A stretch of 64,000 bases of DNA, taken from the NCBI GenBank assembly GCA_964483315.1, contig CAZAAL010000002.1, forward strand, positions 8,689 to 72,688, in the 5' to 3' direction. Below the pieces are notes generated by a model that worked only from the letters and a program-made list of their open reading frames with translations, searched no databases and was not told the origin of the DNA. This stretch comes from an uncultured Candidatus Saccharibacteria bacterium (lineage in GTDB: Bacteria; Patescibacteriota; Saccharimonadia; Saccharimonadales; UBA10212). Every line of letters begins with the position of its first letter. The stretch's first letter is position 1. The position numbers and the translations under genes were made by a program. This document shows positions 1,149-17,765 of this stretch, one piece after another.

Positions 1149-1151
1149 GAT

Positions 1152-1784: not shown

Positions 1785-1823
1785 CGTGGCATAGGTTGGT
1801 GAAGTTACTGGGACCGATTAAAA

Positions 1824-4364
1824 ATGAATGAATCTGCTAAAACCTACACAAAATACAAAAAAGACTTGTCGGACCTATACGATGCAAATATCTATATATC
1901 GAAAAACCAGCTTGAGAACATTAAATCTGTTAACTCCGGTGTAAGTCTTAACCTTTTTGTAGTAGTTAAAATCGCAGCGAATGAACTAGTAAAGCTGAGA
2001 TTGCCTAGCGCTGTTAATGTAATGCGTAATTATCGATACATTAAGAAAAAACTTTCTGTGCGCGTGTCTCATAATAGCGAGTTTATTGACAAGGAAAAAC
2101 AGAATAAATACACCATCGAAGGCAATTCACTTGATTATCAGCAAATTGAAGCAGTAGTTGCCTGTGAAGATGCAAACCTCGTACTAGCAGCAGCTGGTAG
2201 TGGCAAAACTTTGAGTCTTCTAGCGAAGATAAAATACATACACCAGGAACTAAAGATTCCTCTATCTAAAGTTCTCACAATTTCATTTACGAATAATACG
2301 ACGATTGAGCTTAAAGAAAGATTGAAGGACCTGGGACTTGATTCAGATGGAGTTCGTACATTTCACTCACTCGGAAACTGGATTCTAAAGGAGTCAAGTG
2401 GTAAGCAGAAGAAATTATTTCAAGATGATGCCATCAAGCGCTTTGTTACTAAGACTGTAAAGGAAATGCGTGAGAACGACGAATCTTTTGCACGTAAGTA
2501 CAACGACTATTTGCTTTACTACCACACTACACCAATCGACCCATTAGAAATTAAGGATGAAAAAGAAGCTATCAATTTCAATAAATCGTTCCTAAGAAAA
2601 ACACTTCAAAGTGTGTCCATGCAAAAGAAACTATACGATAAGTCCCGCCCAGCCCTAGCAGGTGAATACGTTAAATCGAAAGAAGAGCAAATCATAGCTA
2701 ACTTCTTGTTTATTAATCAAGTCCCATATGAATATGAAAAACAGTATCCCTACATGGATACAAAATATCGACCTGATTTTACAATTGAAGAATTTGATGA
2801 ACCGATTTATTTAGAACACTGGGGAATGGATAGAAGCGGCAAGGTCTCCCCTTTGAATGGTAACCCTACTACTTACGTAAAACGCAAAGCTTGGGCTAAG
2901 CATACACATGAAGTAAACAATACAATTTTAATTGAGTCTTTCAGCTATCAATGGCGCGAAGGTACACTGTTATCTCACATTGAAGCAGAATTAAAACGTG
3001 TTGGCGCTGAGCTAATACGAAGAAAAGAAACTGAAATTGCATCCCTTATAAATAAATCGTACCGACACGATATACGCTCCTTTGTAGAACTCTGTAATAC
3101 CTTCTTGAACTTGTTTAAAAATAGTGCCCTATCCCTTGAAGAGCTGGAGCAACGAATCAGCTCAATTGAGAGTGACTATCAGAGAGATCGTACTGAAAAA
3201 TTCTACGAAGTATTTAAGCCAGTTTATGAGTCATACCAAAATCACCTTTCTGAAAATAATCTCCAAGATTTTGCAGACATGATTAAACTCGCTACCAAGA
3301 AAATTCAGCAACTCCCAGAACGTTCCTTCGAGTTCGATTATATTCTCGTAGATGAAGTGCAAGACTTATCATTTGGCAGATTCTCGCTATTGAAATCTCT
3401 GCTGGACTCTAACCCTAATGCAAGATTGTTCTGTGTAGGAGACGACTGGCAATCAATATACAGGTTTACAGGAAGCGACCTTACCCTTATCCAGGACTTT
3501 GAATCGTTTTTCGACCGTGAAACTTACCGGAGCATGATTGAGCAAACACATCGATTTGGTGACCCAACGGTACAGCTTAGCGGTGATTTTATACAGAAAA
3601 ACCCTAAGCAATCTACCAAGAATGTCTTATTCGATCCTGCCAGAAACACGCCTATTAGCATCAACATCAATGATGAACTGACATCTAAGAATCGATCCGA
3701 GTGTATTGTTAGTAATTCAAAATACGAAGATCGTGTTGTTGATATTCGCGATGGCATGACTCTAAACAAGATTCTAGGCGAGCTTGCTGATGCACATGGA
3801 ATTGAACGCCTGAAAGAAAAAGAGATCCAGATCATTTCTCGTTATAACTGGGACATAGACAGAATTGCCAACCATCCTGCTTTCAGCATAGAAGAAGACA
3901 ACGACACTAAAGATATCAAGGTCTCATGGCAGCACCGTGGAAGCTCTGAGTCATTGGAATTGTACTACTCAACAATGCATAGAGCTAAAGGTCTTACACG
4001 CGACATGGTGTTTGTTTTAAACTGCAACGACGGTGCTGCTGGAATGCCAGCAACCCAAAATGACGACCCAGTCCTTGAACTTCTATTAGCGCATCCTGAT
4101 GGTTACCAATACTCTGAAGAAAGAAGACTTTTCTACGTATCAATTACTAGAGCAAAAGAAGTCACTTATCTTCTGGCAAACCCTGAAACACCCTCGCAAT
4201 TTTTGTTTGAGCTTGAGCCACAACTAGCCAACAGTGAGCGCAAAGTATGTCCTGTATGCAAAACAGGAGAGTTAGTGATCAGAAAATCTGTACGCGGACA
4301 GTTTGAGGGCTGCACTAACTTCAAACACGGCTGTACCTACACTTCTAATACTAATGTGTTTTAA
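1824..4364 (+). CDS. UvrD/Rep superfamily-1 helicase, helicase IV-like, with an embedded nuclease-like domain and a C-terminal zinc ribbon
   Basis: Walker A is AAAGSGKT. Other SF1 motifs are ILVDEVQDLS (II), GDDWQSIYRFTGS (III), TMHRAKGLTRDMVFVL and RRLFYVSITRAKE (VI). An insert reads KSKEEQIIANFLF..YEYEK...YRPDFTI..PIYLEHWG. The C-terminus is CPVCKTGELV...GCTNFKHGC, a topoisomerase-type C4 ribbon. Confidence 0.8.
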   Translation: MNESAKTYTKYKKDLSDLYDANIYISKNQLENIKSVNSGVSLNLFVVVKIAANELVKLRLPSAVNVMRNYRYIKKKLSVRVSHNSEFIDKEKQNKYTIEGNSLDYQQIEAVVACEDANLVLAAAGSGKTLSLLAKIKYIHQELKIPLSKVLTISFTNNTTIELKERLKDLGLDSDGVRTFHSLGNWILKESSGKQKKLFQDDAIKRFVTKTVKEMRENDESFARKYNDYLLYYHTTPIDPLEIKDEKEAINFNKSFLRKTLQSVSMQKKLYDKSRPALAGEYVKSKEEQIIANFLFINQVPYEYEKQYPYMDTKYRPDFTIEEFDEPIYLEHWGMDRSGKVSPLNGNPTTYVKRKAWAKHTHEVNNTILIESFSYQWREGTLLSHIEAELKRVGAELIRRKETEIASLINKSYRHDIRSFVELCNTFLNLFKNSALSLEELEQRISSIESDYQRDRTEKFYEVFKPVYESYQNHLSENNLQDFADMIKLATKKIQQLPERSFEFDYILVDEVQDLSFGRFSLLKSLLDSNPNARLFCVGDDWQSIYRFTGSDLTLIQDFESFFDRETYRSMIEQTHRFGDPTVQLSGDFIQKNPKQSTKNVLFDPARNTPISININDELTSKNRSECIVSNSKYEDRVVDIRDGMTLNKILGELADAHGIERLKEKEIQIISRYNWDIDRIANHPAFSIEEDNDTKDIKVSWQHRGSSESLELYYSTMHRAKGLTRDMVFVLNCNDGAAGMPATQNDDPVLELLLAHPDGYQYSEERRLFYVSITRAKEVTYLLANPETPSQFLFELEPQLANSERKVCPVCKTGELVIRKSVRGQFEGCTNFKHGCTYTSNTNVF

Positions 4365-4372
4365 TACCATAG

Positions 4373-5884
4373 CTATTTCCGTTTCCGCTCATCTAAATAC
4401 TTTATTGCGTAGTATTCATGATGCTCCCAGCCATGTGCGGTATGCATAGCCCAGCCAAATGACACTTCCCAGCGGACATTGGACTGGATGTAGTTTAAAC
4501 CCATCGACAAAGCGTCTGCCAGGTCGTCGTACTTTTCGACACCAAAGCCAACCAGCTGCTGTACCATTGGTGCTATTCTTCTATCCTTGGGGAAATAAAC
4601 CTTACCCATCTGAAACAGAGCACTAACAAGCTGTAGTCTGGCGCGTTTATCCGTATGTACTTTTACACCTTTTGCTTTAATATCTCGGCTATGTAGCTGC
4701 TCAGTGACCGCTGCCTGATATTGCACCGACTCTACCAGCACCATCGGCTCCTTTTTGCTTGCCGCGTTAAGTGCCTGGTAGATCTGCTCTATTCGGTTAA
4801 GCGTATCGAGATGTGTTATGCGCTCGTTTACGTACTGAATATCGATGTAGTAGCGCCTATCCTCAGTCTTATAGCCAAAGAGGTGGATTACCACAATTGC
4901 TGTCTTGTCTGCGGTATCGGACTGGGATATTGCTAGGTCAACCGACACAAATGAATTGATATATTCATTTTTCTTGGTGCGCTCTGGAAGTTCTTCGTAG
5001 TACTGAATCCACTTTGAATCGATAACCTGATCTTCGTCTGGAATTATCCGTAACATGTACTCTCGCTCCCATGATATTGGGTTGCCTATGGACCGCCTTA
5101 GCTTGTTTAGTGCTGCTTTGTCAGGATACTTACCAGGCCAAAGACTTTTGTTGCCACGCATAATCGGCCACTCATCGTAGCTGCCATCAACTTCGCGTTT
5201 ATCAATCCGCTCTTTAAGTCGCATCAACAGCGAATCTTCGTGTAGCAGGTTACCAACTGCAATTCGCTTGGTATTTGTATCACCCGCAGGGATTATCTCG
5301 CTGGTATACCAGTCAAATGTCTTGTTACGGCCTTCACGGGTCTTCACAGACGCCATATCTTCTACGTCATCGGCAATTATTAGATCAGGGCGATAGCGAC
5401 CGTGACGGATGCCACGGACACTTTGCTCCGTAGATATGGCCGTTATGCGAGCATTGTATTTAGGAATATAGAGTGATGTAGAACCCCACTCCTCACGCTG
5501 TTCTACAAATGGACCCATATCGTTCTTGAGTAGGTCATTGCTTTCCAGCTCACGCTTGATGTTCATTAGGTGAACCCTTGCTTGATACTGAGTTTGGCTG
5601 GCAATTAGCACAAATTTCTTCTGCTGTCTACCAAGCACAGCCCAAATTGGGTAGCTCATGGTCATGATAGTCGATTTGCCCGATCCCCGAAACGCTACGA
5701 CTACTGACAATGGATTGCTCTCATCTTCAGTTAGGGCAAAGAGCTGTCGGTGCAAGTCTGCTGTTTCATGAGTTAAATAGCCTGCAAAATATGTCGAAAA
5801 AAACCACTCGTGGCTCTGCGAAGTAACTGCTGTACGCAGCTCTCGATCTGTAAATAACTTCTCCTGTAATTCATTTGGTTCCAT
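4373..5884 (-). CDS. Phage terminase large subunit (TerL)
   Basis: Walker A is FRGSGKSTIMT and Walker B is PDLIIADDVED. The C-terminal half is RNaseH-like nuclease (SVDLAISQSDTADKTAIVV, YDDLADAL). Its start overlaps the TerS-like gene by 14 nt. Confidence 0.85.
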   Translation of the reverse strand: MEPNELQEKLFTDRELRTAVTSQSHEWFFSTYFAGYLTHETADLHRQLFALTEDESNPLSVVVAFRGSGKSTIMTMSYPIWAVLGRQQKKFVLIASQTQYQARVHLMNIKRELESNDLLKNDMGPFVEQREEWGSTSLYIPKYNARITAISTEQSVRGIRHGRYRPDLIIADDVEDMASVKTREGRNKTFDWYTSEIIPAGDTNTKRIAVGNLLHEDSLLMRLKERIDKREVDGSYDEWPIMRGNKSLWPGKYPDKAALNKLRRSIGNPISWEREYMLRIIPDEDQVIDSKWIQYYEELPERTKKNEYINSFVSVDLAISQSDTADKTAIVVIHLFGYKTEDRRYYIDIQYVNERITHLDTLNRIEQIYQALNAASKKEPMVLVESVQYQAAVTEQLHSRDIKAKGVKVHTDKRARLQLVSALFQMGKVYFPKDRRIAPMVQQLVGFGVEKYDDLADALSMGLNYIQSNVRWEVSFGWAMHTAHGWEHHEYYAIKYLDERKRK

Positions 5885-6287
5885 TTTCTTGGTCTCCCTC
5901 TTCTTTAATTAGTCCGGCTAAACGCAGAGCTTGTGATACAAGCTCGGTTTGCTCGGGTGTTAGTCCTTGTTGAACGCCTTCAATCTTGGCGTCAACTTCT
6001 ACGCGGTTGCGGTAGGCACGCCGGTGATGCTTCAGCCAAAACATGATTGCGGTCATGTTCTGATCTTTGATGGCGCTTATGAGCTGGCTTTCAGCCATGT
6101 CGCTAATTAGCCCAGCACTTTGATCAATAGCTTCGTCTACTGCATCGGCAAACGTTTCATCATCTTTACGCCAGCGATAAAAGGTACTGCGAGGGATGCC
6201 TGCTTGTTTGCAGGCAGCCTCCACAATTGGCGTACGTTTTAACTTGGCGAGTACTTTTGCCTTGTCTTTATCTTGATTCCGGCTCAT
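5871..6287 (-). CDS. Putative terminase small subunit / HTH DNA-binding protein
   Basis: The N-terminal HTH reads IVEAACKQAGIPRSTFYRWRKDDETFADAV. The gene lies immediately upstream of and overlapping TerL. Its 138-aa size fits TerS. Confidence 0.6.
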   Translation of the reverse strand: MSRNQDKDKAKVLAKLKRTPIVEAACKQAGIPRSTFYRWRKDDETFADAVDEAIDQSAGLISDMAESQLISAIKDQNMTAIMFWLKHHRRAYRNRVEVDAKIEGVQQGLTPEQTELVSQALRLAGLIKEEGDQENGTK

Positions 6288-7603
6288 GACAGCAGCTCTC
6301 GCTTTTGGCCTGTCAGCTTTTCCCAGCGTTTCAAAGCCACCTCGGCATATACTGGAGATTTCTCCATGATGTAACAGCGGCGCTTTAGCTTGGTGCTAGC
6401 AATTAATGTCGATCCGCTACCACAGAAGGGCTCAACCACTAGGTCGCCACGCTTTGTAAGTACTTTGATGTAAGGTATTAAGATCTCTAGTGGTTTAGTG
6501 CCGAATATAACACCTTGCCCTGAGTGTTTCTCGTCACTGGCCTGAAATTCAATAAAGTCAGTCGGCTGGTACTTCTTACCACCTTTGTAGCCCTCCCATT
6601 GGGGTTTACCGCTAATGGCGTACAGTGCAGTTTCGTACTCCTCTTGCAAACCATCAGTTTCTATATCGTGGTTGTACGGTACTGTGCCGCTACCCCCAAC
6701 CATAGCGATGTCATGCTTACTAAAGAACTTATATTTGGCACTAAAACCCTGGTGACGATTCGGCAAGTGCCAGACGATCATATTTTTGACCTTCCAGTAT
6801 TTTTCCATCTCAGCCCATATAACACGGAGGTTCTTCCAGTTTTCATAGACAATAATGCTGTAGTCGGGCTTGGCATACTTAGCTACATTCGCCATCCATA
6901 GCTCTGTAAAGTTGTCAGGCAGTTCGTCAGTCTCAAGGTAGCGGCGATTCTTTTTTGCACCGAAACCAGTTGTTGGCTTACCGCCACGCTTAGCATGCAG
7001 GTAATCTAAGATGTACGGAGGATCCGTACACGTCATGTCCGCCAGCTCGCCATTCATGAGCTTATCGAAATCCTCTGGTATGGTGCTGTCACCAACCATC
7101 AGTCGCGAATCACCAAGCTTATATACGTCGCCCTTTTTGGCTTTAACTTGCTTGATATCCAGCTTCTTGAGCTCTTTTTCAAGGTCGAAGTTTTCTGGCT
7201 CGTCTACTTCAATATCAAAGATGGTGTCTAGCTCCTCACTACTAAAGCCAATGTCATCTAGTAGTGATTCATCAAACTCGGACAGCAAATCCCAGTCCCA
7301 ATCACCTTGGTTCTTGTTGAGCCGGAGGTTTAGCTCACGCTCTTTTTCTTCCTCAGGTATATCAAGATACACCACTGGCACTTCAGTTAATCCCAGGTCT
7401 TTAGCCACCTTGAGACGGAAATGCCCACCAATTACGATGTTTTTGCGCTGTGATGAACCGTTGACTAGTATTGGATCTACCAACCCGAACCGTTTAATGC
7501 TTTCTGTTAACTGTTCGGTAGTGTCTTCGTTCCACGACCGTGGGTTATATTCGGACGGTTTTAGGTTGCCGATTTTCACCTGTTGAATTGATAAGTTACT
7601 CAT
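6284..7603 (-). CDS. ParB-like nuclease domain fused to an N4/N6 DNA methyltransferase (phage-type)
   Basis: The N-terminus has ParB motifs (EYNPRSW, GGHFRL). The middle has the catalytic motif TDPPY. The C-terminus has the SAM-binding motif FCGSGSTLIA. A 4-nt overlap links it to the downstream TerS-like gene. Confidence 0.85.
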   Translation of the reverse strand: MSNLSIQQVKIGNLKPSEYNPRSWNEDTTEQLTESIKRFGLVDPILVNGSSQRKNIVIGGHFRLKVAKDLGLTEVPVVYLDIPEEEKERELNLRLNKNQGDWDWDLLSEFDESLLDDIGFSSEELDTIFDIEVDEPENFDLEKELKKLDIKQVKAKKGDVYKLGDSRLMVGDSTIPEDFDKLMNGELADMTCTDPPYILDYLHAKRGGKPTTGFGAKKNRRYLETDELPDNFTELWMANVAKYAKPDYSIIVYENWKNLRVIWAEMEKYWKVKNMIVWHLPNRHQGFSAKYKFFSKHDIAMVGGSGTVPYNHDIETDGLQEEYETALYAISGKPQWEGYKGGKKYQPTDFIEFQASDEKHSGQGVIFGTKPLEILIPYIKVLTKRGDLVVEPFCGSGSTLIASTKLKRRCYIMEKSPVYAEVALKRWEKLTGQKRELLS

Positions 7604-7646
7604 AAACGTAATTCCTTTCTTGTTAGTTTGCGTTTACGAGCTCAAT

Positions 7647-7680
7647 TAAAAAGAATCCCACCGTTTTACGGCAGGACTCT
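7647..7680 (-). terminator. Rho-independent terminator (minus strand)
   Basis: The minus strand reads AGAGTCCTGCCGT-AAA-ACGGTGGGATTCT followed by TTTTT. That is a 13-bp stem including 3 G-U pairs. It lies just downstream of the 7703 stop. Confidence 0.7.
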
Positions 7681-7702
7681 TAAGGGTCTCTACTACTGTT
7701 AT

Positions 7703-8284
7703 TTAGATGGCGATAATACCATTTAAGGCTATGCCTTCAGTACGAACCAACACATAATCTAGCTGGTAGCCTTCTTGCTTGAGTTTATATTTCAAATCTT
7801 TAAAAGCCTTTATGCGATCACCAGATCCGATATGTTCCTGGATTTCTTCGTAGGTGACAACTTCTGAAATATGCATCAATAGCTTATGGAGAAATCTACC
7901 ACTTCGTGACCCTCGCGAATGAAGGCGAGGTAACACTTTGTTACCGAAAATAAACCGGCCGTATGGATCTATATCCGCTACTAAGTGCCGATCTAGCCGC
8001 TTAACCGGTGCTTCTGAAGGCGGTACTACATAGATTAGTGGTCGCCAACTAAAAACAGCTGTAACTACAGCCTTAATTCTATCCACGATAGCCTTAAAGG
8101 ACTTAGCTATCTGCTTCACGTGGTCGTTTAAAACCTCAAAAGCGCGTCGCATCGGAGCCAGTTGCTGCTGCAGCACTTTGGCGACAGTAGCCTGAGCGGC
8201 GAAAACACCGCTCATAGCTGACATGCTGCTGCCTAAGTTGAAAGCACTGGCCAATTTGATCTGAAGAATCTTATTTGCATCCAT
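7703..8284 (-). CDS. Hypothetical protein with a C-terminal winged-helix (OmpR/trans_reg_C-like) region
   Basis: The C-terminus FLHKLLMHISEVVTYEEIQEHIGSGDRIKAFKDLKYKLKQEGYQLDYVLVRTEGIAL resembles trans_reg_C. I prefer the ATG at 8284, which is preceded by GCGAGG, over the listed GTG at 8317. Confidence 0.45.
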   Translation of the reverse strand: MDANKILQIKLASAFNLGSSMSAMSGVFAAQATVAKVLQQQLAPMRRAFEVLNDHVKQIAKSFKAIVDRIKAVVTAVFSWRPLIYVVPPSEAPVKRLDRHLVADIDPYGRFIFGNKVLPRLHSRGSRSGRFLHKLLMHISEVVTYEEIQEHIGSGDRIKAFKDLKYKLKQEGYQLDYVLVRTEGIALNGIIAI

Positions 8285-8303
8285 ATCATTAGACCTCGCA
8301 ACT

Positions 8304-8615
8304 TTAACGAACCCCACAGGGTGGGTTATGGGCTTCCCGCACTAGGCTTTCAAGCGCCATTCGACTTGCATCATCACAGTAGTAGACTGAAGCGTACAGG
8401 CCATCAATAATATGCTGTTTCCATAAATGGGCACGATCGTGGCTGCCGACACGCGTCTTGACTGCGTGTGACTCGCCTGCGTCTATAACCTTGTGGTGAC
8501 TACCGGCGTTAGTTGATATTACATATACCCCAGATTGATCTTGGAGTGGATCAGTGGTCGGGTGCGGACCATCAAATTGGTATGCTCCCTGGTTTGTGTG
8601 AACTGTTAAGCTCAT
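8304..8615 (-). CDS. Small hypothetical protein, weakly GIY-YIG-like
   Basis: I prefer the start MSLTVH at 8615, which follows GAGGG. SGVYVIST...IDAGES..VKTRVGSHDR...E loosely recalls the GIY-YIG layout. This is a weak call. Confidence 0.3.
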   Translation of the reverse strand: MSLTVHTNQGAYQFDGPHPTTDPLQDQSGVYVISTNAGSHHKVIDAGESHAVKTRVGSHDRAHLWKQHIIDGLYASVYYCDDASRMALESLVREAHNPPCGVR

Positions 8616-8751
8616 TTTACCCTCACTTTTATTAGTTAGTAACTTGTTGTTTAAGTGTTTGTCTCTAGCGTCTCTCTTGCTGAGGCTTGCACTATATGTA
8701 GAGAATAACAACCCTTGTATACCCCGTCAATAGATAGGTTGAGGTATTTTT

Positions 8752-8763
8752 TACCATATGTTA
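8752..8763. promoter_or_regulatory. Candidate LexA (Cheo-like) operator TACCATATGTTA
   Basis: It matches 11 of 12 positions of the perfect palindrome TAACATATGTTA found upstream of uvrB. It lies inside a putative TTGAGG(8739)-17 nt-TAGTAT(8762) promoter of the LexA-like gene. Confidence 0.4.
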
Positions 8764-8775
8764 GTATTAGTTCAT

Positions 8776-9426
8776 ATGCACCCCCTACAAGAGAAGTTAG
8801 TCACCTTGGCTAAAATGCGTGATCTATCAAGACTGAGCTATAGAGAAATTGGTCGGCAGCTAGCTGCTGACGATGAAGCGCGCGTTCACCCAACCAACGT
8901 CAAATACCATTTAGACCAACTGATTAAACAAGGTATTCTTACCGAGTCATCTAGGCCTGTTGTCCGCAAGACATCAGATAGGATAGCCAAAAATACACTT
9001 AACCTTATTAAGATCCCTATTGTGGGTAGTGCGAACTGTGGACCTGCAACAATATTTGCAGACGATAAAATTGAAGGATACCTTGAAATATCCCCACAGT
9101 TGCTAAAATCACGGAACTACAACGATATATTCGCCCTGCGCGCTAGCGGCGATTCAATGAACGACACCAAAATCATGGGGCAAGCCATCGATGATGGAGA
9201 CTTTGTTGTTGTTGACCGCTCCAAAATTACGCCTCGCGATGGAGAGCGCGTAGTTGTAGTACGAGATGATATGGCCAACATCAAGCAGATATTTTTTAAG
9301 CCAAATGACGGAGTAATCGTCCTAAAATCCGAGTCAAAAACTGATTATCAGCCAATAATTGTTAGCCCAGACGATAACTGGGATGGCCTGATTAGTGGAA
9401 CAGTGATCCAGGTGGTGAAGGTATAG
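8776..9426 (+). CDS. lexA: LexA/CI-family repressor (N-terminal wHTH plus C-terminal S24 peptidase)
   Basis: The S24 catalytic region is ALRASGDSMND...GDFVVVDR...VVVVRDDMANIKQIFFK (Ser/Lys dyad context). The N-terminus is LSYREIGRQL..VKYHLDQLIKQGIL. The start could be 8758 or 8776. The symbol is tentative. Confidence 0.7.
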   Translation: MHPLQEKLVTLAKMRDLSRLSYREIGRQLAADDEARVHPTNVKYHLDQLIKQGILTESSRPVVRKTSDRIAKNTLNLIKIPIVGSANCGPATIFADDKIEGYLEISPQLLKSRNYNDIFALRASGDSMNDTKIMGQAIDDGDFVVVDRSKITPRDGERVVVVRDDMANIKQIFFKPNDGVIVLKSESKTDYQPIIVSPDDNWDGLISGTVIQVVKV

Positions 9427-9431
9427 GCGTT

Positions 9432-10310
9432 ATGATAGATAATTTTGACGAGAAAATCAGAGCTGACAAGAGAGTTAAAATTCATGAAGATCCGTCAGCT
9501 TACGACAAGTTAAAGATAATAACCGATGCTGCTCAAGAAGGAAGTCTCAGTCCTTGGGGTGGTGCTGTAGAGCGTTTAATTAACACATACGGTGTCAATG
9601 TAGCGCGCAAAACTCACCAAAAAATTCAGGTTAATCTTTCGTTCCCTAAATCAACAAAAAACAGGTCCATGGCTATAGGCTTTCGCCACATCAAGTCGGA
9701 TGAAAGTAATGCAGAGGATCTCTACGTATTTATAGAGACTATTGGCTTATTTTGTTTTTATCGGGGTTCACAAGAAGAATACCTCAAGGAATATGCGGGT
9801 TCACACCATGCGAAGATAGAGCTACAGGAATTTTTGCCCGACATACAAGCCGAAATCGCCGACATAAAGAAGATAATGAATAACCAACCGAAATTAAGTA
9901 ACACAAATCCTGTCGATATAGTGACAGATGCTGAGTTTGCACAAGAAATTCGCCAAATCGATGAAGACTTTAAGCAGAAGTCTGATAGCTTTGCCCGTAC
10001 TCATGGCAACTCGAGTGCCCCAATTGCTTACTCTAGGGCGCTACAGATCGAAGCAACCAAAAAGCGTGCTGCAATTAGAGCCAAGAAGCAAGCAAGTGAC
10101 CGTATGTATGAGCTTGAATTGATGGATGTTGAAGACGAATATAATGACAAACTCAAGTTGAAGAGAACGGATTTAGCGCATCGTAATATGCTGGAGTCTG
10201 GGTTTGGACGTCAAGAGATTGAAGATATCGCTGCCAAGAAGGAACGATCTATCGAAAAACTTAACCTAAAATACGGCAAAACTAGTCCAGGTGTTGTTGT
10301 TTCAGAGTAA
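9432..10310 (+). CDS. Hypothetical protein (292 aa), coiled-coil-rich C-terminal half
   Basis: A long ORF 5 nt after the LexA-like stop. It is charged and helical (KKRAAIRAKKQASDRMYELELMDVEDEYNDKLKLKR). I recognised no family. Confidence 0.5.
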   Translation: MIDNFDEKIRADKRVKIHEDPSAYDKLKIITDAAQEGSLSPWGGAVERLINTYGVNVARKTHQKIQVNLSFPKSTKNRSMAIGFRHIKSDESNAEDLYVFIETIGLFCFYRGSQEEYLKEYAGSHHAKIELQEFLPDIQAEIADIKKIMNNQPKLSNTNPVDIVTDAEFAQEIRQIDEDFKQKSDSFARTHGNSSAPIAYSRALQIEATKKRAAIRAKKQASDRMYELELMDVEDEYNDKLKLKRTDLAHRNMLESGFGRQEIEDIAAKKERSIEKLNLKYGKTSPGVVVSE

Positions 10311-10319
10311 AATACAGAT

Positions 10320-11513
10320 GTGTACACACATCTTAAAGAACGCCAGTATTACGAAGATCTGTACGACCGATTAACGGTTGATTATGCCCGTGATCACATC
10401 GGCTACTACGATAAATTCCACGATGAATTTAAGGAAAAGCTGCCCAAGGGCGAAAAGATCGATCGTCCGGGCAACGCTTTCCTGCTAAACATTTTTTATA
10501 TGCAAACCATTGGGAACGAACTACTCCGGCGCTACGAAAAACGCGAGCAGCAGATCGCCGAATGGATTGCTCGTGATGAGTCAAAAGACAACCAAATTGT
10601 CGCTGCACGACTGCATGAAGAACCACTATGTAGCCACTGCAAAAAGCAGGGCCTACGAATTATAGACAAGTCACTCATGCATCGACGAGAAAATTCTAAG
10701 TACGACGATCCTGAAGAAGTGTTATTTATGCTGAAGTGCCCGAACTGCGATAAAAACAGCGCATTCTGGGAAGACGGCACCGCCTGGAAAACCAAACCAA
10801 CGCTATGTCCAAAATGCAGCACTGAAGTCACCCATAAAACAACTAGCTCCAAGAAATTCATAACCATTATGTACAGTTGCCCCAATTGTAAGCACAGCTT
10901 CAAAGAAAAGTTAGATATTGGTACTAAGGAAGAAAAACCCGATCCAGACTTCGAAAAAGACCGTGCCCACTACTGTCTGCACGACAAAGAATTTCGGGAT
11001 CACTTGTTTGCTATTAGGCAAGGTTTTGAGGATATGGCTCGGCTCGGCATGGAGATGAAGGAAAAGCAAGATAACAAGCACATCTATGATGCCGTAAAAG
11101 AGATGAAGAAGCCAAAGATTGCAGAACTGATACCACTATTATCCGAACCTCTCGAAAAAGCTGGCTACATTGAGTTTCATATAGATAAACCCGAAATGGG
11201 TCGTGACGTGTATGTTGGCTTCAGCTGCCTTGACAGCAAGTCTGACCGAAACGATTACGACAGCAGAAAGACATTGAAAAAGCTAGTCGATAGCGCATTA
11301 GAGGAAACCAATTGGCGACTTATGAACGACGGCATCTCATATCGGCTCGGCTATTTAAACGGCCGAGTAAAAGCATACGAGGGCGAAGAAGATCTGAAGA
11401 AGCTAGTTATGAAGAGCAAGAAGTTAAAGCCCAAGCAAACAAGTAGCAAGGTTACCGATAAAAGCAGCGAAAGGACGCTCAAAGCTCCAGATGGAACTGA
11501 AATAATTCTATAA
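10320..11513 (+). CDS. Hypothetical protein with two CxxC...CxxC zinc-ribbon pairs
   Basis: GTG start 9 nt after the previous stop. The cysteine pairs are CSHC...CPNC and CPKC...CPNC. I recognised no family. Confidence 0.5.
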   Translation: MYTHLKERQYYEDLYDRLTVDYARDHIGYYDKFHDEFKEKLPKGEKIDRPGNAFLLNIFYMQTIGNELLRRYEKREQQIAEWIARDESKDNQIVAARLHEEPLCSHCKKQGLRIIDKSLMHRRENSKYDDPEEVLFMLKCPNCDKNSAFWEDGTAWKTKPTLCPKCSTEVTHKTTSSKKFITIMYSCPNCKHSFKEKLDIGTKEEKPDPDFEKDRAHYCLHDKEFRDHLFAIRQGFEDMARLGMEMKEKQDNKHIYDAVKEMKKPKIAELIPLLSEPLEKAGYIEFHIDKPEMGRDVYVGFSCLDSKSDRNDYDSRKTLKKLVDSALEETNWRLMNDGISYRLGYLNGRVKAYEGEEDLKKLVMKSKKLKPKQTSSKVTDKSSERTLKAPDGTEIIL

Positions 11514-11515
11514 AT

Positions 11516-11544
11516 TGAGACATACCCGTTTCGTGTCTCATTTG
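11516..11544 (+). terminator. Possible intrinsic terminator
   Basis: TGAGACA-11 nt-TGTCTCA followed by TTTG, immediately after the 11513 stop. The stem is short and the U-tract is weak. Confidence 0.4.
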
Positions 11545-11619
11545 TCCCATTTACCCCTGTAATTAAAGTTCTAGACCAAGACGCTCAGCCACATAGTGCA
11601 GCTTTGCTATACTGCAATT

Positions 11620-11928
11620 ATGGATATAGAACTACTCTCACCTTCTGAGGCGCTAGATAGTTTTAGTCTTATTGTGGCACTTGGATTATTTATTTTTTAT
11701 TTGATTGTTGAAGTGCTGGATTCGTCTTTAACTTTTTCTTTGGTTCAGCACAAATCTATACGTTCGGCTATCGTGACTTTTATTCTATATACAACAATTG
11801 CTATAGAGGTGATAGCCATAATTGCAAATTATTTATATATCATTCCTGTCGCGGTTGGTGCCGGTCTTGGTACTTATATAGTAGTTGAATACGAAAAGAA
11901 AAAACGCCCTATAAAGCAGACTGACTGA
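11620..11928 (+). CDS. Small integral membrane protein
   Basis: There are three hydrophobic spans. I prefer the ATG at 11620, which lies 6 nt after TATACT (11608-11613). Confidence 0.5.
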   Translation: MDIELLSPSEALDSFSLIVALGLFIFYLIVEVLDSSLTFSLVQHKSIRSAIVTFILYTTIAIEVIAIIANYLYIIPVAVGAGLGTYIVVEYEKKKRPIKQTD

Positions 11929-11969
11929 GTATTGGGTTATTTTTTAAGTGAATGTATGATGAGGGTTAG

Positions 11970-12389
11970 ATGTTAAAAGATCAAAGTAAAAAGCAACAAA
12001 TATTTCAAGAGATGGTTTTGGGCATATTGTTGTACACGGTAGTACTTGGTTTTTTTAACGATTATAGCGACATTTTGTACATCAGTTCGTACTCAGTAAT
12101 ATTTTTAGTGGCAGTTGTAATGCAGGTTTTAACTTACTTTACATTTATAGTTAAAGGCAAGGTTGCAGGCTTTTTTAAGAATAAGGACGGATTCTTTAAC
12201 AAATCAGCACTTGTTTTTGGGGTCTGGTTGGTACTGTTTTTATCAAAATTTGTATTTTTATGGGTTATCGAGCTTTTGTTCCCAGAGTCGGTTCAAATCA
12301 GTGGGTTTATTGGGCTGCTAATCATAATTGCTTTGTTAACAATTTCCCAAAAAATCATAGAACAAGCCTATAACAAACTTTCAGATTAA
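11970..12389 (+). CDS. Integral membrane protein (4 predicted TM segments)
   Basis: The sequence is hydrophobic throughout (LGILLYTVVLGFF, VIFLVAVVMQVLTYFTFIV, ALVFGVWLVLFL, GFIGLLIIIALL). Confidence 0.55.
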   Translation: MLKDQSKKQQIFQEMVLGILLYTVVLGFFNDYSDILYISSYSVIFLVAVVMQVLTYFTFIVKGKVAGFFKNKDGFFNKSALVFGVWLVLFLSKFVFLWVIELLFPESVQISGFIGLLIIIALLTISQKIIEQAYNKLSD

Positions 12390-12532
12390 GATGTTAAATC
12401 AACTAAGCTATAAATAATTCATCTTTTATGGTATAATTATGCTTACCAAAGCCTAATACTTTTTAAGAAAACTCTTTTAGCAAATCTGCATTCTTAATAT
12501 CTTGGCAGATAAAATCAACTAAGGAGTAAATT

Positions 12533-13528
12533 TTGATTTCATTTATTTGGCCACCTGGTACGCCAATGCTGGCAGGAACTGGTGGATCCGAAACTTATAC
12601 AGCCGGCCAAGTCCGCGAGCTATTAAGACGTGGCATAAACGCCCAAGTCGTCACAATCGGACATGGTAATAATGACGGCAGGCAAGATTTTAAGGACATC
12701 CCATTTTTATCCTTAAAAACAGCATCTGGAATAAGTGACCTAACTGGTACAGTGGTGTTTATAAATAGAGCGTATGATGTATCAACAAGAAACAAATCAG
12801 CAATTATATTGCACTGTGTAACTCCAAAATCAGAGGAGCGGAGACAGCTAAAGGCAGATGTTAAAAACAAGACCATTATCGCTACAAGCATATTTAGTGG
12901 TCAACAATGGGCACTTTTTTTACAAATTCCGTATAGCCAAATTAAAATCGTTTTACCATTTGCTGATCCAATTTTTGGCAATATAAAAAGATCAAAACCC
13001 GCCAAAAGGACACGAATCCTGTTTGCTGGTCGACTGCACCCCGATAAAGGCATATATACATTACTAGAAATGATGCACCAAAAAGAAATGCAAAAAAACG
13101 GATTTACTGTAAGTATTGTAACTGCTGGTCAACACGCTGAAGTTGGAGTAACGATTGCAAGAATGCTTAAAAACTACCCCTACGCTAGATTAGTTTTACC
13201 CCAAAAATCAGTTTCAGATATGGCTAGGTTGCTCGCTCACAGTGATATTTTACTTATGCCGTCGGTTTACGCTGAACCATTTGGTATGCTCTCCGTTGAA
13301 GCTCAGCATGCTGGCTGCAGAGTAGTTGCAAGCAATATTGGCGGACTGCCCGAAACCAATTGTGGGCTTCTAACTTTGGTTGAGCCACGTAGCCCAAAGA
13401 CCTTAAAATCAGGCATTAAGCAGGCAGTAGCATTAGGCCAGGCTACAAAAAAAGAGCGCTCCACTGCCAAAGCAGATTTTACACTTGATGCATCTGTCGA
13501 TGAACTTTTAGCTGTTTTGCATCTATAA
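12533..13528 (+). CDS. Glycosyltransferase family 4 (GT-B, GT1-type)
   Basis: The C-terminal motif is MPSVYAEPFGMLSVEAQHAGCRVVASNIGGLPE (the E-x7-E region). TTG start preceded by AAGGAG. Confidence 0.75.
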   Translation: MISFIWPPGTPMLAGTGGSETYTAGQVRELLRRGINAQVVTIGHGNNDGRQDFKDIPFLSLKTASGISDLTGTVVFINRAYDVSTRNKSAIILHCVTPKSEERRQLKADVKNKTIIATSIFSGQQWALFLQIPYSQIKIVLPFADPIFGNIKRSKPAKRTRILFAGRLHPDKGIYTLLEMMHQKEMQKNGFTVSIVTAGQHAEVGVTIARMLKNYPYARLVLPQKSVSDMARLLAHSDILLMPSVYAEPFGMLSVEAQHAGCRVVASNIGGLPETNCGLLTLVEPRSPKTLKSGIKQAVALGQATKKERSTAKADFTLDASVDELLAVLHL

Positions 13529-13588
13529 CCACAATATTAAGATGTTATTTAGTAGAAAATTCTACAACATATTTTTAAACTTAAGCAT

Positions 13589-13617
13589 TTGCATACTGCT
13601 TTTAATAGCTATAAACT
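13589..13617 (+). promoter_or_regulatory. Putative sigma70-type promoter TTGCAT-17 nt-TAAACT
   Basis: The hexamers and the 17-nt spacer were read directly from the sequence. It lies upstream of the candidate small RNA. Confidence 0.4.
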
Positions 13618-13619
13618 AT

Positions 13620-13708
13620 AGACAGTTCATCGTGAGGTGAATTAGCGAACTAGCAACCTTCGGGAAGCTAACAAGCGAACAAAGAACGCTACTTCGGTAG
13701 CGTTTTTT
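13620..13708 (+). ncRNA. Candidate small RNA or structured leader (two UUCG-tetraloop hairpins, the second a terminator)
   Basis: TAGCAACC-TTCG-GGAAGCTA is flanked by a duplicated AGCGAAC. It is followed by AACGCTAC-TTCG-GTAGCGTT plus TTTT. There is no ORF. The element lies 90-180 nt past the glycosyltransferase stop. Confidence 0.35.
13685..13708 (+). terminator. Rho-independent terminator
   Basis: AACGCTAC-TTCG-GTAGCGTT (8-bp perfect stem, UUCG loop) followed by TTTT. Confidence 0.8.
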
Positions 13709-13709
13709 G

Positions 13710-13737
13710 TTGGATTTTTAAATTTGTAGAGTATCAT
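13710..13737 (+). promoter_or_regulatory. Putative promoter TTGGAT-16 nt-TATCAT placed for a leaderless transcript
   Basis: The -10 hexamer ends exactly 6 nt before the ATG at 13744. No Shine-Dalgarno site is present. Confidence 0.45.
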
Positions 13738-13743
13738 TAGATT

Positions 13744-14133
13744 ATGATTAGGTTGTTAATCTCAGCTGGCATTCACCTGCTGGCAAATGCAATCGGACTT
13801 TATAGCGCATCGCTATTACTCGATGGCTTTAGTATCGATTTTGTATCTGGCTTAGGGGCAGTATTAATATTCACGGGTATCGAAGTACTGGCAGGTCCGC
13901 TTTTAATTAAAGTATCGCTACAGCATGTACCGGCTTTAGCTGGTGGGGTAGCGCTTGTAACCACGTTTGTGGGTTTGGCTTTGACCAATGTGCTATCTGA
14001 TGGACTCACTATTAATGGAATTGATTCGTTGCTGGCTGCGACATTTATTGTATGGCTCGTAACACTTTTAGCCAACCTTCTGCTGCCTATTATTTTTGTT
14101 AAAAAAGCAGTAGATAATAACAAATCTAAATAA
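13744..14133 (+). CDS. 4-TM membrane protein, Phage_holin_4_2-like
   Basis: The overall pattern (LLANAIGLY..LLDGF.I......VLIFTGIEVLAGPLL, 4 TM segments, about 125 aa) resembles the PF04020 family. This is motif-level recognition only. Confidence 0.45.
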   Translation: MIRLLISAGIHLLANAIGLYSASLLLDGFSIDFVSGLGAVLIFTGIEVLAGPLLIKVSLQHVPALAGGVALVTTFVGLALTNVLSDGLTINGIDSLLAATFIVWLVTLLANLLLPIIFVKKAVDNNKSK

Positions 14134-14202
14134 AAGTATTGCAATAAAATAGAGCAGTGCTAAAATGATTAACAAGTTAAGTATTATTTGGGAGTATAAT
14201 TT

Positions 14203-15648
14203 ATGGCAAAAAAATTGAGCAAACATTCTGAAAACAAATGGGCGATTCTTGCCTTGTTGGCGTTAGCTCAATTTATGGTAGTTTTAGACGTGGCAATAGT
14301 AAATGTTGCCTTGCCATCAATTGCAGTTGACTTAAACTTTGCTGAAAATAACCTACAGTGGGTTGTAACGGCGTATACTTTAACTTTTGGTGGATTTTTA
14401 CTTTTAGGTGGACGAGCTTCGGACTTGTACGGCAGGCGCAAGGTTTTTATAGCTGGTACAGCAGCCTTTACCTTAATGTCTCTGCTTTGTGGACTGGCTG
14501 AGACAGAGTCACAACTGATTATAGCTAGAGCGGCACAAGGCCTTGCAGCTGCCATAATGTCGCCAGCGGCACTATCGATTGTTTTGAGTGAGTTTAAGGA
14601 AGGTGAAGAGCGCAACAGGGCTATGGGTGTTTGGGCGGGTGTAGCCGCCGGTGGTGCAGCTGCCGGCGTACTACTAGGCGGTATACTTACTCAATATTTG
14701 AATTGGCGCTGGAATTTTATTGTAAATGTACCGGTCGGTATATTGGTTGTTTTTGCATCACTAAGAATGTTGCCACATCATATTGGAGAAGAAAACAAAA
14801 AACTAAAACTAGATACGGTTGGGGCTATTTTGGCCACAGGTGGTTTGATGACACTCGTGTATGGGCTCTCCAAGGCTCCAGAATATGGCTGGGGATCAGT
14901 AAGCGTTTGGAGCTTTATATTCGCCGGATTAATACTTTTGGTAGCCTTTATATGGAACGAAAAACGAGTAGATCAACCGCTAATGCCACTAAAGATATTT
15001 AAGATCCGAAATGTGCTTGGCGGAAACTTGGCATTTTTAGCAATTGCATGTACGTTATTTTCGATGTTTTTCTTTTTGACACTATATATTCAACAGGTCC
15101 TGGGCTACTCGCCAGTAAAAACCGGTCTTTCATTTTTGCCGGTGACAATAATTATTGGAGCAACCTCGGCAATCATGTCTAACTTAGTAGGCAAGATTGG
15201 CTATAAGCCACCTATGCTAGCTGGCCCAATAGTTTTAGCATTGGGTCTTTATGTACTAAGCGCAACAATGGAGGTGGGCGGTGACTACTGGCATAATGTC
15301 TTTCCGGGTCTTGCAATTTGTGCCGTAGGTATGGGCTTAACATTTTTGTCTGGAACTTTGGCTGCAACTTCAGGTGTGCCCAAACACTTTTCGGGGCTTG
15401 CATCTGGAGTACTAAACACCTCGCAACAAGTTGGTGGCGCGTTAGGGCTTGGTATATTATCAGCGGTTGCTTTTACGACTTTAAAGTCTGATGTATCAAA
15501 TGGAATTAACCCGGCTGAGGCCCAAATCAATGGCTACTCGGCAGCATTAAAGGTTGGAATTGCATTGGCTCTCTTGGGCGCAGTAGCTGTGCTAGTTCTT
15601 GTTAAAAACCACAAGGTTGATGCTAAAGAGGCAATGGTCGCAGGCTAA
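14203..15648 (+). CDS. MFS transporter, DHA2 (EmrB/QacA-like, 14-TM) family
   Basis: FMVVLDVAIVNVALPSI and the motif-A-like GGRASDLYGRRKVF. The 481-aa length with many TM segments fits the family. Confidence 0.8.
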   Translation: MAKKLSKHSENKWAILALLALAQFMVVLDVAIVNVALPSIAVDLNFAENNLQWVVTAYTLTFGGFLLLGGRASDLYGRRKVFIAGTAAFTLMSLLCGLAETESQLIIARAAQGLAAAIMSPAALSIVLSEFKEGEERNRAMGVWAGVAAGGAAAGVLLGGILTQYLNWRWNFIVNVPVGILVVFASLRMLPHHIGEENKKLKLDTVGAILATGGLMTLVYGLSKAPEYGWGSVSVWSFIFAGLILLVAFIWNEKRVDQPLMPLKIFKIRNVLGGNLAFLAIACTLFSMFFFLTLYIQQVLGYSPVKTGLSFLPVTIIIGATSAIMSNLVGKIGYKPPMLAGPIVLALGLYVLSATMEVGGDYWHNVFPGLAICAVGMGLTFLSGTLAATSGVPKHFSGLASGVLNTSQQVGGALGLGILSAVAFTTLKSDVSNGINPAEAQINGYSAALKVGIALALLGAVAVLVLVKNHKVDAKEAMVAG

Positions 15649-15653
15649 GGACA

Positions 15654-15911
15654 TTACTTATCTTTTTGTTTTTGTAGCTTTAATTTAGATAGATAAATAC
15701 CTACCGATACGACGCTAAGATATGCAAGTCCGCTAAAACAAGCCGAAACTAAATGAGCATTAGTCGATGTAACTAGTGCAATGCCACTTATTAGAGTTGA
15801 GCCTAGTAAAGCATAACTTAAATACAATTTATGCTGACTTGGGCTGATATAGCAAAAAGCGGTGCTTACTAAGCCCATGAACGCTGCTAAGATGTGTAGC
15901 GTTAAAAACAT
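15654..15911 (-). CDS. Small membrane protein downstream of cyoE
   Basis: 85 aa with 3 hydrophobic spans. Its start is 7 nt after the cyoE stop on the same strand. Confidence 0.45.
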   Translation of the reverse strand: MFLTLHILAAFMGLVSTAFCYISPSQHKLYLSYALLGSTLISGIALVTSTNAHLVSACFSGLAYLSVVSVGIYLSKLKLQKQKDK

Positions 15912-15918
15912 AAGCTAA

Positions 15919-16767
15919 TTATACTACACCTTCTATGGCAATCATTACACAAAAAGACACTAAAACGAATAACGAAACTCTGAACATTTTACGTGCCCAG
16001 GCTACGTCATTTCTTGTATCGAATCCAGAAATTGCCACCCATAGCCAATATAGCCCAAAAGCGCTAACTACCATAAGATAGGTTAATCCAGTTATGCCGT
16101 AGACCATTAGCAATAAAACTGCCAGTAAATAACCTATAATGTACAACAGAATGTGACGCTTAGTTACATCGTTTCCTTTTACAACCGGCAATACCGGGAT
16201 ACCAGCTAATTTGTAGTCGCGCTTTTTATACATGGCAATTGAGTAAAAATGGGGCATCTGCCAAAATACTAATACAAAAAATAGCAACACTGCACCAGCA
16301 TCGACTTGGCCTGATACCGCGCAGTAGCCTACAACTGGTGGGACTGCTCCTGAAATGCTACCAACTAAAGTGCCGTACTGGCTTTTTCGTTTGGCTATTG
16401 AATAAACGACTACATACATAAAAAAACCAAAAATTGCGACTAGCGTTGCCACCCAATTAGTAAAAATTGCTAGTATTACTACGCCAATGACACCTAAAAC
16501 CAAGCCGAAGTAGATAGCTTTATTGAATGCTATTGCTCCCTGGGCGAGAGCTCGGTTTTTTGTTCGGGGCATTTTTTTATCAATATCACGATCAATGTAG
16601 TTGTTAAAGACGCAGGCTGAGGCGATAACTAATCCCAGTCCAAAAAGAGTTGCTAGGTAAAGCCAAAAATCAACATTATCCTCAGATGCTAATAAAAACG
16701 CTCCAGCAGTTGCAAGTAAATTGCCAAAAATTATTCCAGGTTTAGTTAGTAAATAGTAGGTTCTCAA
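15919..16767 (-). CDS. cyoE: Protoheme IX farnesyltransferase (heme O synthase)
   Basis: The UbiA-family motif is NNYIDRDIDKKMPRTKNRAL. It is polytopic and lies downstream of cyoABCD. Confidence 0.85.
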   Translation of the reverse strand: MRTYYLLTKPGIIFGNLLATAGAFLLASEDNVDFWLYLATLFGLGLVIASACVFNNYIDRDIDKKMPRTKNRALAQGAIAFNKAIYFGLVLGVIGVVILAIFTNWVATLVAIFGFFMYVVVYSIAKRKSQYGTLVGSISGAVPPVVGYCAVSGQVDAGAVLLFFVLVFWQMPHFYSIAMYKKRDYKLAGIPVLPVVKGNDVTKRHILLYIIGYLLAVLLLMVYGITGLTYLMVVSAFGLYWLWVAISGFDTRNDVAWARKMFRVSLFVLVSFCVMIAIEGVV

Positions 16768-16785
16768 ATAATGTTCCAGATAAAC

Positions 16786-17764: not shown

Positions 17765-17765
17765 A

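Follow-up and report, generated by a model that had tools for sequence, protein, structure and literature searches.

A probable inducible, S24-controlled cargo gene in a defence hotspot anchored by a double-zinc-ribbon protein of Candidatus Saccharibacteria

We analysed a three-gene cluster in a 64,000-nt stretch of DNA (hereafter the window) from contig CAZAAL010000002.1 of an uncultured Candidatus Saccharibacteria bacterium. The cluster comprises a gene for a repressor with an S24 peptidase domain (the S24 gene), two further genes for uncharacterised proteins, ORF2 and ORF3, and a conserved non-coding element that follows ORF3 (Table 1). Our favoured reading, to which we assign a probability of about 0.6, is that ORF2 is a damage- or phage-inducible cargo gene controlled by the S24 repressor and carried in a defence hotspot anchored by ORF3. 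The locus is a hotspot of variable, mainly anti-phage genes with a conserved flank on each side, one being an operon transcribed leftward and the other ORF3 together with the element. The S24 gene, ORF2 and ORF3 have three separate histories and do not form a single dedicated unit. The open reading frames, their intergenic gaps (5 nt between the S24 gene and ORF2, 9 nt between ORF2 and ORF3), the four CxxC pairs of ORF3 and the downstream hairpin described in an earlier note on this DNA were each found where that note had placed them.

The neighbourhoods of 87 loci encoding ORF3 relatives were surveyed; loci are cited below by their L numbers. ORF3 was identified in 71 loci. It was almost always the last gene of a co-directional cluster, and the genes 5' of it were nearly all singletons in all-against-all BLAST. 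A scan of 67 upstream proteins with Pfam and PADLOC revealed CBASS cyclases, a Cap15-type two-transmembrane (2TM) effector, SLATT, Avs4, LmuA and LmuB of Lamassu, OLD, type I and type IIG restriction-modification proteins, products of mads genes, PDC-S46, DUF2130 and DUF6119. DUF4238 and HEPN genes were also found in this slot upstream of ORF3 at other loci, and TIR genes elsewhere in the hotspot. The slot was empty in L023 and L035, where the gene for a ParB-methylase directly adjoins ORF3.

Comparison with relatives located the variable segment of the window. The leftward operon of L001 is nearly the same as that of the window, and nucleotide homology between the two stops at 8582 and resumes near ORF3; DNA homology with L006-L009 spans 10307-11591. 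Because homology breaks at 8582 and resumes by ORF3, the promoter region, the S24 gene and ORF2 are the variable segment here, a 1.7-kb insert made up of the promoter/operator region and the two genes. The locus shows what defines a hotspot, namely conserved flanks, content that varies among relatives and known defence systems within the slot. In L001 the gene abutting ORF3 (5300-6001), which stands in the place of the S24 gene, combines an XRE-HTH with SocA/Panacea, an antitoxin-type domain.

ORF3 is a lineage-wide, constrained double-zinc-ribbon protein, and it is the anchor of the hotspot, not part of its cargo. A word-indexed search yielded at least 752 related proteins, the best 120 of which were 66-92% identical and mostly 395-398 aa long. 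When representatives at 50% identity were searched exhaustively, 619 clusters matched at E ≤ 0.001 and 222 reached E ≤ 1e-30; many of the matches spanned the full length, at 30-42% identity. The homologues, annotated just as "hypothetical protein", come from Saccharibacteria, Parcubacteria, Minisyncoccia and the Patescibacteria group; several sit on contigs of 0.6-1 Mb, and those 93-94% identical to the window protein come from Candidatus Saccharibacteria and Saccharimonadales assemblies. The four CxxC pairs are C104/C107 (CSHC), C140/C143 (CPNC), C163/C166 (CPKC) and C187/C190 (CPNC), and each of the eight cysteines is fully or almost fully conserved in alignments down to 30% identity, in agreement with the two zinc ribbons proposed earlier. 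Y11, Y15, S315 and R342 are invariant as well.

The AlphaFold2 model of ORF3, built from a 65-sequence alignment (pLDDT 87), has an N-terminal three-helix domain, a beta region with the two ribbons, a helical linker and a C-terminal domain of beta-beta-alpha-beta-beta-beta-alpha layout. Foldseek searches of PDB and BFVD gave no match at E ≤ 0.001 and weak matches to S24e/S6-like ribosomal proteins, while a profile search of PDB sequences returned RPB9/TFIIS-type ribbons and nothing else. Pfam, PHROGs, PADLOC and NCBIfam gave weak zinc-ribbon matches and nothing more; no recombinase domain was detected with Pfam or NCBIfam, nor any structural match in PDB. With a dN/dS of 0.04 the gene is under strong purifying selection, and its product is probably a nucleic-acid-binding protein. 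Several other identities were considered and rejected: a phage gene, as ORF3 was absent from IMG/VR and from 50,697 phage genomes; a TnpB- or IS-type protein, given sub-threshold generic zinc-ribbon matches and no RuvC or OrfB domain; and a toxin, because in L002, L004 and L023 ORF3 has no co-directional partner and stands by itself.

The S24 protein is, as judged from its sequence, a LexA/cI-type autocleaving repressor and part of the variable cargo. It matched Peptidase_S24 (PF00717) with an E-value of 1.7e-17 and 63.6 bits (cut-off 23.3) and a PHROG annotated "transcriptional repressor" with an E-value of 1.8e-19. Against the LexA equivalog model NCBIfam TIGR00498 it scored 62.5 bits, under the cut-off of 110.95, which the relative in L087 clears with 142.5 bits. 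The catalytic dyad, Ser in GDSM and Lys in ANIK, is invariant in 11 family members, and the cleavage site upstream of it reads ANCG/ADCG (Cys-Gly) or ASAG (Ala-Gly) across the family. As to an N-terminal winged-helix DNA-binding domain, the window protein gave only a weak match to HTH_20 (E 0.0074), and the L087 relative matched LexA_DNA_bind. A start at 8776 is favoured over the longer frame because homologues begin MHPLQEK. The S24 domain, the Ser/Lys dyad and the Cys-Gly site point to a protein competent for autocleavage, so that the LexA-like repressor named earlier as the head of the cluster can be retained.

S24 proteins were the sole recurrent neighbour family of ORF3, occurring in 11 of the 37 loci with at least 2.5 kb of upstream sequence, and they typically lead the cargo. 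The genes that they head encode a CBASS cyclase and a 2TM effector in L006, SMODS-AGS_C cyclases in L019, L053 and L085 (together with SLATT in L019), DUF4238 in L009 and L087, a HEPN protein in L012 and a 418-aa protein of no assigned family in L015 and L007; in L027 and L040 there is no such cargo and ORF3 directly follows the S24 gene. In L085 and L087, both Parcubacteria-type, the S24-led cargo lies 3' of ORF3 rather than 5'. For DUF4238, protection against T7 has been demonstrated (bioRxiv 10.1101/2021.01.21.427644). No description of S24-led immune operons was found in the literature searched. Identity between S24 proteins of different loci was just 35-47%, where that of ORF3 was 60-94%.

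These data also bear on the simplest alternative, that ORF3 is an ordinary vertically inherited gene whose link to variable DNA is incidental, the S24 gene being the host lexA and ORF2 a random orphan insertion. We regard this as unlikely. The family-wide conservation of ORF3 length, the 30-42% identity between Saccharibacteria and Parcubacteria-type members, the contigs of 0.6-1 Mb, the low dN/dS and the weak structural likeness to RNA-binding ribosomal proteins and RPB9/TFIIS ribbons would all suit such a gene. However, no housekeeping synteny was seen on either side of ORF3, even among loci at which it is 93-94% identical; both flanks vary, and the neighbours commonly encode defence systems. 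S24 identities of 35-47% between close relatives are, moreover, unlike those of an orthologous lexA, and the window protein does not reach the LexA equivalog cut-off.

ORF2 belongs to a sporadic accessory family and is a candidate defence or exclusion effector. The family comprised 23 homologues sharing a conserved N-terminal region of about 140 aa with invariant motifs, followed by C-termini that are either charged and helical, as in the window, or longer and beta-rich. The window protein, for which a coiled-coil-rich character had been suggested earlier, has no membrane segment, and 36% of the residues in its C-terminal half are charged. No significant match was obtained in Pfam, PHROGs, PADLOC or NCBIfam, nor in PDB sequences by profile search, and there was none among the 50,697 phage genomes. 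Relatives of ORF2 occur in seven other contexts, in none of which they stand beside an S24 gene or ORF3. One overlaps the end of a HEPN_AbiU2 gene (L092), one adjoins an OLD-like ATPase (L089), one is clustered with DUF6119 (L120) and one lies just 5' of, and overlaps the start of, an uncharacterised 615-aa gene (L119); those in L088 and L091 belong to accessory regions of prophage-like character that also encode a large serine recombinase, an Ltp-type lipoprotein and an XRE regulator. ORF2 is put forward as an effector because of the defence-type context of its relatives and the slot that it occupies here. The suggestion of an abortive-infection or defence module, made earlier for ORF2 and ORF3 as a pair, therefore suits ORF2 by slot and context and does not extend to the pair.

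The S24 gene and the leftward operon diverge from a shared promoter region. A consensus scan predicted a leftward promoter, TTGACG-17-TATTCT, at 8730-8702. A rightward promoter for the S24 gene can be read from the sequence as TTGAGG (8739-8744)-17-TAGTAT (8762-8767), with the -10 box ending 8 nt before the start codon. The candidate operator CATATG-TTAGTATTAGTT-CATATG has one match in the window against 0.03 expected, and ACYATATGT occurs twice in the 64 kb, at 8691 and 8753. S24 promoters at other loci bear different repeats, as expected from the diverged DNA-binding domains of their repressors. No canonical SOS box was found at the locus.

ORF3 appears to have a -10 signal of its own. A TANNWT hexamer is present 5-9 nt (mostly 6) before the ORF3 start in 26 of 41 loci, against a background of 5.9% (p = 2e-22), which suggests that ORF3 is probably transcribed alone as a leaderless mRNA, in addition to any read-through from the insert upstream. 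The idea that the three genes form a single transcript is weakened by this signal; for the step from the S24 gene to ORF2 it stands, as neither a plus-strand terminator nor a consensus promoter was detected between them in our scan. At the S24 and ORF3 starts of the window and some 40 loci, the -10 boxes end 6-10 nt upstream and no Shine-Dalgarno sequence is visible, and leaderless transcription may be common in these genomes.

The proposal that the S24 gene, ORF2 and ORF3 constitute one dedicated SOS-controlled module, with ORF2 and ORF3 as a damage-induced effector pair, is highly unlikely in the light of these distributions. It could draw on the tight spacing of the genes and the lack of an internal plus-strand terminator, on S24/LexA proteins being the only recurrent neighbours of ORF3 (11/37 loci), on the bona fide LexA (142.5 bits) encoded immediately 3' of ORF3 in L087, and on the S24 genes directly before ORF3 in L027 and L040. 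Set against this are the unrelated distributions of the two families (23 homologues of ORF2, more than 750 of ORF3), the absence of both ORF3 and S24 genes next to ORF2 relatives in the seven other contexts, the probable -10 box belonging to ORF3 itself, the occurrence of ORF3 without an S24 gene in 26 of the 37 well-flanked loci, in a family spread over hundreds of Patescibacteria lineages, and the far faster divergence of S24. The effector pair was accordingly abandoned. The neighbourhood survey that the earlier note had called for, asking whether both genes always follow an S24 repressor, gave a negative answer for each: ORF3 has an S24 neighbour in 11 of 37 loci and the ORF2 relatives have none in the seven other contexts. 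That note had held that wide occurrence without an S24 or LexA neighbour, combined with clear housekeeping homology, would speak against its idea; the former was observed, and the case against it is half made, because ORF3 shows no housekeeping homology either. Its statement that the cluster matches none of the known LexA-linked cassettes holds, since Pfam, NCBIfam and PHROGs gave no imuA, imuB or dnaE2, no sulA and no umuDC.

The conserved element downstream of ORF3 forms the outer part of the right flank. It opens with the hairpin after the ORF3 stop codon (-10.1 kcal/mol, z = -3.4), which the earlier note had placed behind the three genes; the fold is real, and it is the start of a conserved element rather than a private terminator. 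The element was scored by an 18-mer covering its tandem 9-mers, with up to three mismatches allowed. The 18-mer was present in single copy, always on the ORF3 strand and always 3' of ORF3, at a distance of 10 nt to 6.8 kb, and of the 22 loci for which 5 kb or more of sequence was available downstream, 15 carried the element. It is unique within the window and is also present in L086 and L087, whose ORF3 proteins are 36-38% identical. The genes between ORF3 and the element vary and include DUF6994, a TIR protein, a helicase, LexA with DUF4238 and an Eco57I-type methylase. At some loci the two parts of the element are split by insertions, and many copies are followed by a strong terminator hairpin. 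In IMG/VR, 18-mer matches were mostly low-complexity tandem repeats, and the full element was found just in L099, L114 and L115.

We read the element, on the strength of sequence comparisons, as a boundary of recombination at the level of DNA. The homology that the window shares with its relatives stops at the 3' edge of the element. L019 and L020 are 98% identical up to the first core copy at the element and unrelated beyond it, and in L020 a 3-kb cassette (13528-16577) with a P-type ATPase, a CsoR-type metal repressor and DUF6653 lies between two core copies. No Rfam match was obtained for the element, and RNAalifold gave zero base pairs in 20 sequences. It may alternatively be an unstructured small RNA, a reading that we keep because a strong terminator hairpin follows many copies. 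A tRNA, tmRNA, SRP RNA or other RNA was rejected (ARAGORN and Rfam blank, no consensus fold), as were a general genomic repeat (one copy in the window), a LexA box (missing from S24 and lexA promoters) and a dif site (no inverted arms and no resemblance to the dif consensus). A replication origin or terminus at the element was not supported, GC skew being uninformative over the span.

A bolder view, which we hold to be quite unlikely, is that ORF3 and the element constitute a previously unrecognised gene-capture platform of Patescibacteria. ORF3, a zinc-ribbon protein unlike known recombinases, would act at or organise a chromosomal landing site made of two GTCTCATTT direct repeats and a GTWCNNGACC-N9-AGCCA core, at which defence and resistance cassettes would be exchanged in an integron-like manner, and LexA-type S24 repressors would be the usual switch travelling with the cassettes.

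The left flank of the hotspot is phage-like in its gene content. Among the ORF3 loci, divergent flank genes encoded a ParB-methylase in 16 cases, a TerS-like protein in 15 and TerL in six. In the window the leftward operon is divergent from the S24 gene, and a UvrD-type helicase and an Eco57I-type methylase lie further left. The ORFs tested between 51 and 19721 included no gene for a capsid, portal, tail, integrase or replication protein. Compared with relatives, dN/dS was 0.01 for TerL, about 0.02 for the ParB-methylase and 0.03-0.08 for the TerS-like gene, and the description of this region as a phage remnant had to be given up, as the terminase and ParB-methylase genes are not decaying. With these values obtained at a dS of about 1 and no structural phage genes nearby, the genes at 4373-7603 have the appearance of a packaging or methylation module that has been domesticated. 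The dS of TerL between the window and L001 is 1.2 while that of ORF3 is saturated, which indicates separate histories for the two flanks. The ORF at 8304-8711 on the minus strand was listed at 135 aa with a TTG start, and ATG at 8615 gives 103 aa; the gene probably starts at the latter, because a GAGGG ribosome-binding site precedes it and relatives match about 103 aa. The predicted leftward -10 box lies downstream of that TTG.

That the whole block 4373-11591 is a domesticated or satellite-like phage-derived element, in which S24 would be a cI-type immunity repressor, the terminases would serve packaging, the conserved element would be an att or pac/cos site and ORF3 would act in integration or replication, strikes us as an unlikely account. 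In its favour, the region has divergent promoters with an S24 repressor, and the very strong purifying selection on TerL, the TerS-like gene and the ParB-methylase is consistent with it. So is base composition, as GC content is 44-48% across 4373-11513 (41% in ORF2) and 37-39% in the flanks. Homology to relatives extends from the stop codon of TerL as far as the element's 3' edge, P2/P4 hotspots likewise adjoin cos, and L115 holds a 9117-bp tandem, possibly circular unit with TerL-like, TerS-like and ParB-methylase genes and the element. Yet the block yielded no integrase, capsid, portal or replication gene, and no direct repeats of at least 14 nt flank it. ORF2 and ORF3 are missing from the 50,697 phage genomes, and ORF3 from IMG/VR as well; in Parcubacteria-type loci ORF3 and the element occur with no terminase or ParB-methylase gene within 6 kb, and in L002 ORF3 adjoins type IV secretion system (T4SS) genes. 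The differing divergence histories of ORF3 and TerL between the window and L001 likewise argue against a single element. The L115 unit (1-14480 of IMGVR_UViG_3300020195_001307) also encodes a methylase and two proteins of no assigned function, carries the GTCTCATTT element without ORF3, and continues after the element with NUDIX, ribonucleotide reductase and PfkB genes.

For the inducible cargo gene in a hotspot that we favour, we infer the following mechanism. The S24 repressor would bind repeats over its own leaderless promoter and probably also over the back-to-back leftward promoter. When DNA damage or phage replication gives rise to single-stranded DNA with RecA, Ser/Lys self-cleavage at Cys-Gly would be triggered; repression would be lifted and ORF2 made, which would act as an abortive-infection or exclusion effector. 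ORF3 would be expressed from its own -10 box and by read-through from whatever is inserted upstream.

Several observations weigh against this reading. ORF2 fits no PADLOC model, and the other loci yielded nothing close to the S24-ORF2 pair, so that functional coupling of the two rests on their adjacency in one locus. The rightward S24 promoter falls short of the consensus-scan threshold, and the assignment of the operator at 8755-8778 is a guess from the sequence. Non-defensive cargo such as FtsK-like proteins and exonuclease VII also occurs in the slot, and past the downstream element there is a metal-ATPase cassette. Finally, ORF3 could act together with the cargo, because its start is often within 40 nt of the upstream gene or overlaps it.

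Table 1 Features of the locus, in window coordinates.
Feature	Position	Strand	Description
Leftward operon	4373-8615	-	103-aa and 204-aa proteins of no assigned function, ParB-N6/N4 methylase, TerS-like HTH, TerL-like
Divergent promoter/operator region	8616-8775	.	160 nt between the leftward phage-like operon and the rightward S24 operon
Candidate S24 operator	8755-8778	+	CATATG-TTAGTATTAGTT-CATATG; overlaps -10 box and start codon
S24 gene	8776-9426	+	216 aa; longer ORF from 8758
ORF2	9432-10310	+	292 aa
ORF3 -10 box (probable)	10308-10313	+	TAAAAT; overlaps ORF2 stop codon, ends 6 nt before GTG
ORF3	10320-11513	+	397 aa; GTG start
Conserved element	11516-11591	+	Hairpin TGAGACA-N11-TGTCTCA, tandem 9-mers, then a further part
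Tandem 9-mers of element	11535-11552	+	GTCTCATTT/GTCCCATTT
Further part of element	11568-11590	+	GTTCTAGACC-N5-GCTCAGCC

The surroundings of the block were also inspected. The stretch 51-4364 encodes an Eco57I/TaqI_C-type methylase cut by the window start, a 210-aa protein of no assigned family and a helicase of UvrD type that carries a Top1 zinc ribbon. In L009 a homologue of the 210-aa protein is found on the other side of the ORF3 block, suggesting either a rearrangement or a further mobile defence module. Just past the element, 12533-14133 encodes a Phage_holin_4_2-type membrane protein and a GT4 glycosyltransferase that weakly matches the "GT4-conflict" family (E 4.8e-7); the two may be further conflict-related cargo. 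On the minus strand, 15919-19721 carries a gene for a UbiA prenyltransferase and an operon for a haem-copper oxidase (COX4_pro, COX3, COX1). An aerobic respiratory module of this kind is atypical of the reduced Saccharibacteria lineage.

Patescibacteria make up a large and poorly understood share of bacterial diversity and, to our knowledge, are mostly without CRISPR. A hotspot that can be found by one protein and one DNA motif offers a practical way of mining their immune genes, with ORF2 and several 400-aa proteins of no assigned function as the first candidates. The locus further suggests that CBASS and other immune operons may be switched by a single LexA-type protein, as an alternative to CapH/CapP, CapW and CapK/CapS. 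Recombination at the element is directly testable, because the homology of relatives breaks there, beside ORF3, and ORF3 itself is a large, strongly constrained family awaiting functional assignment.

As a site, the locus resembles the P2/P4 prophage hotspots (Rousset et al., bioRxiv 10.1101/2021.01.21.427644) and the core defence hotspots of Pseudomonas aeruginosa (PMC10250203), in that conserved flanks enclose a slot that varies between close relatives and whose content is rich in known anti-phage systems, DUF4238 included. It also shares with P2/P4 a conserved non-coding site beside the slot, cos there and the element here. Unlike in both, the host belongs to Patescibacteria, one flank is the uncharacterised ORF3 family, there is no complete prophage, and a second variable slot exists between ORF3 and the element.

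As a regulatory arrangement, the locus is comparable to CapH/CapP (bioRxiv 10.1101/2022.04.27.489752), CapW (PMC11662680) and CapK/CapS (PMC13373217), where a repressor gene lies directly 5' of CBASS or other immune cargo and a DNA-damage signal is predicted to inactivate the repressor. It differs in having no metallopeptidase, WYL domain or kinase; a single LexA-type S24 protein would both bind DNA and cleave itself. Neither LexA nor S24 is mentioned in the paper on CapK/CapS (PMC13373217). With LexA, lambda cI and other S24 repressors the window protein shares the S24 domain, the Ser/Lys dyad, the Cys/Ala-Gly site and a repeat-bearing divergent promoter region. Unlike LexA, it scores under the equivalog cut-off, has no DNA-repair genes under its promoter, is highly divergent among closely related genomes and has a candidate operator that is no known SOS box.

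ORF3 and the element, a conserved gene beside a site of about 60 bp, recall the integron platform (intI, attI and cassettes) and Xer-dependent dif modules. The site likewise consists of direct repeats and a core at which homology between relatives breaks, and the L020 cassette, with its P-type ATPase and metal repressor, has no recombinase of its own and is flanked by two core copies. Unlike in an integron, ORF3 has no similarity to tyrosine or serine recombinases and is co-directional with the site; attC-like hairpins were not found, and ORF3 does not qualify as an IntI. The kind of system, a defence hotspot with a damage-responsive regulator, is already known, and what is new are its components: the ORF3 family, the element, the S24-led immune cassettes and ORF2.

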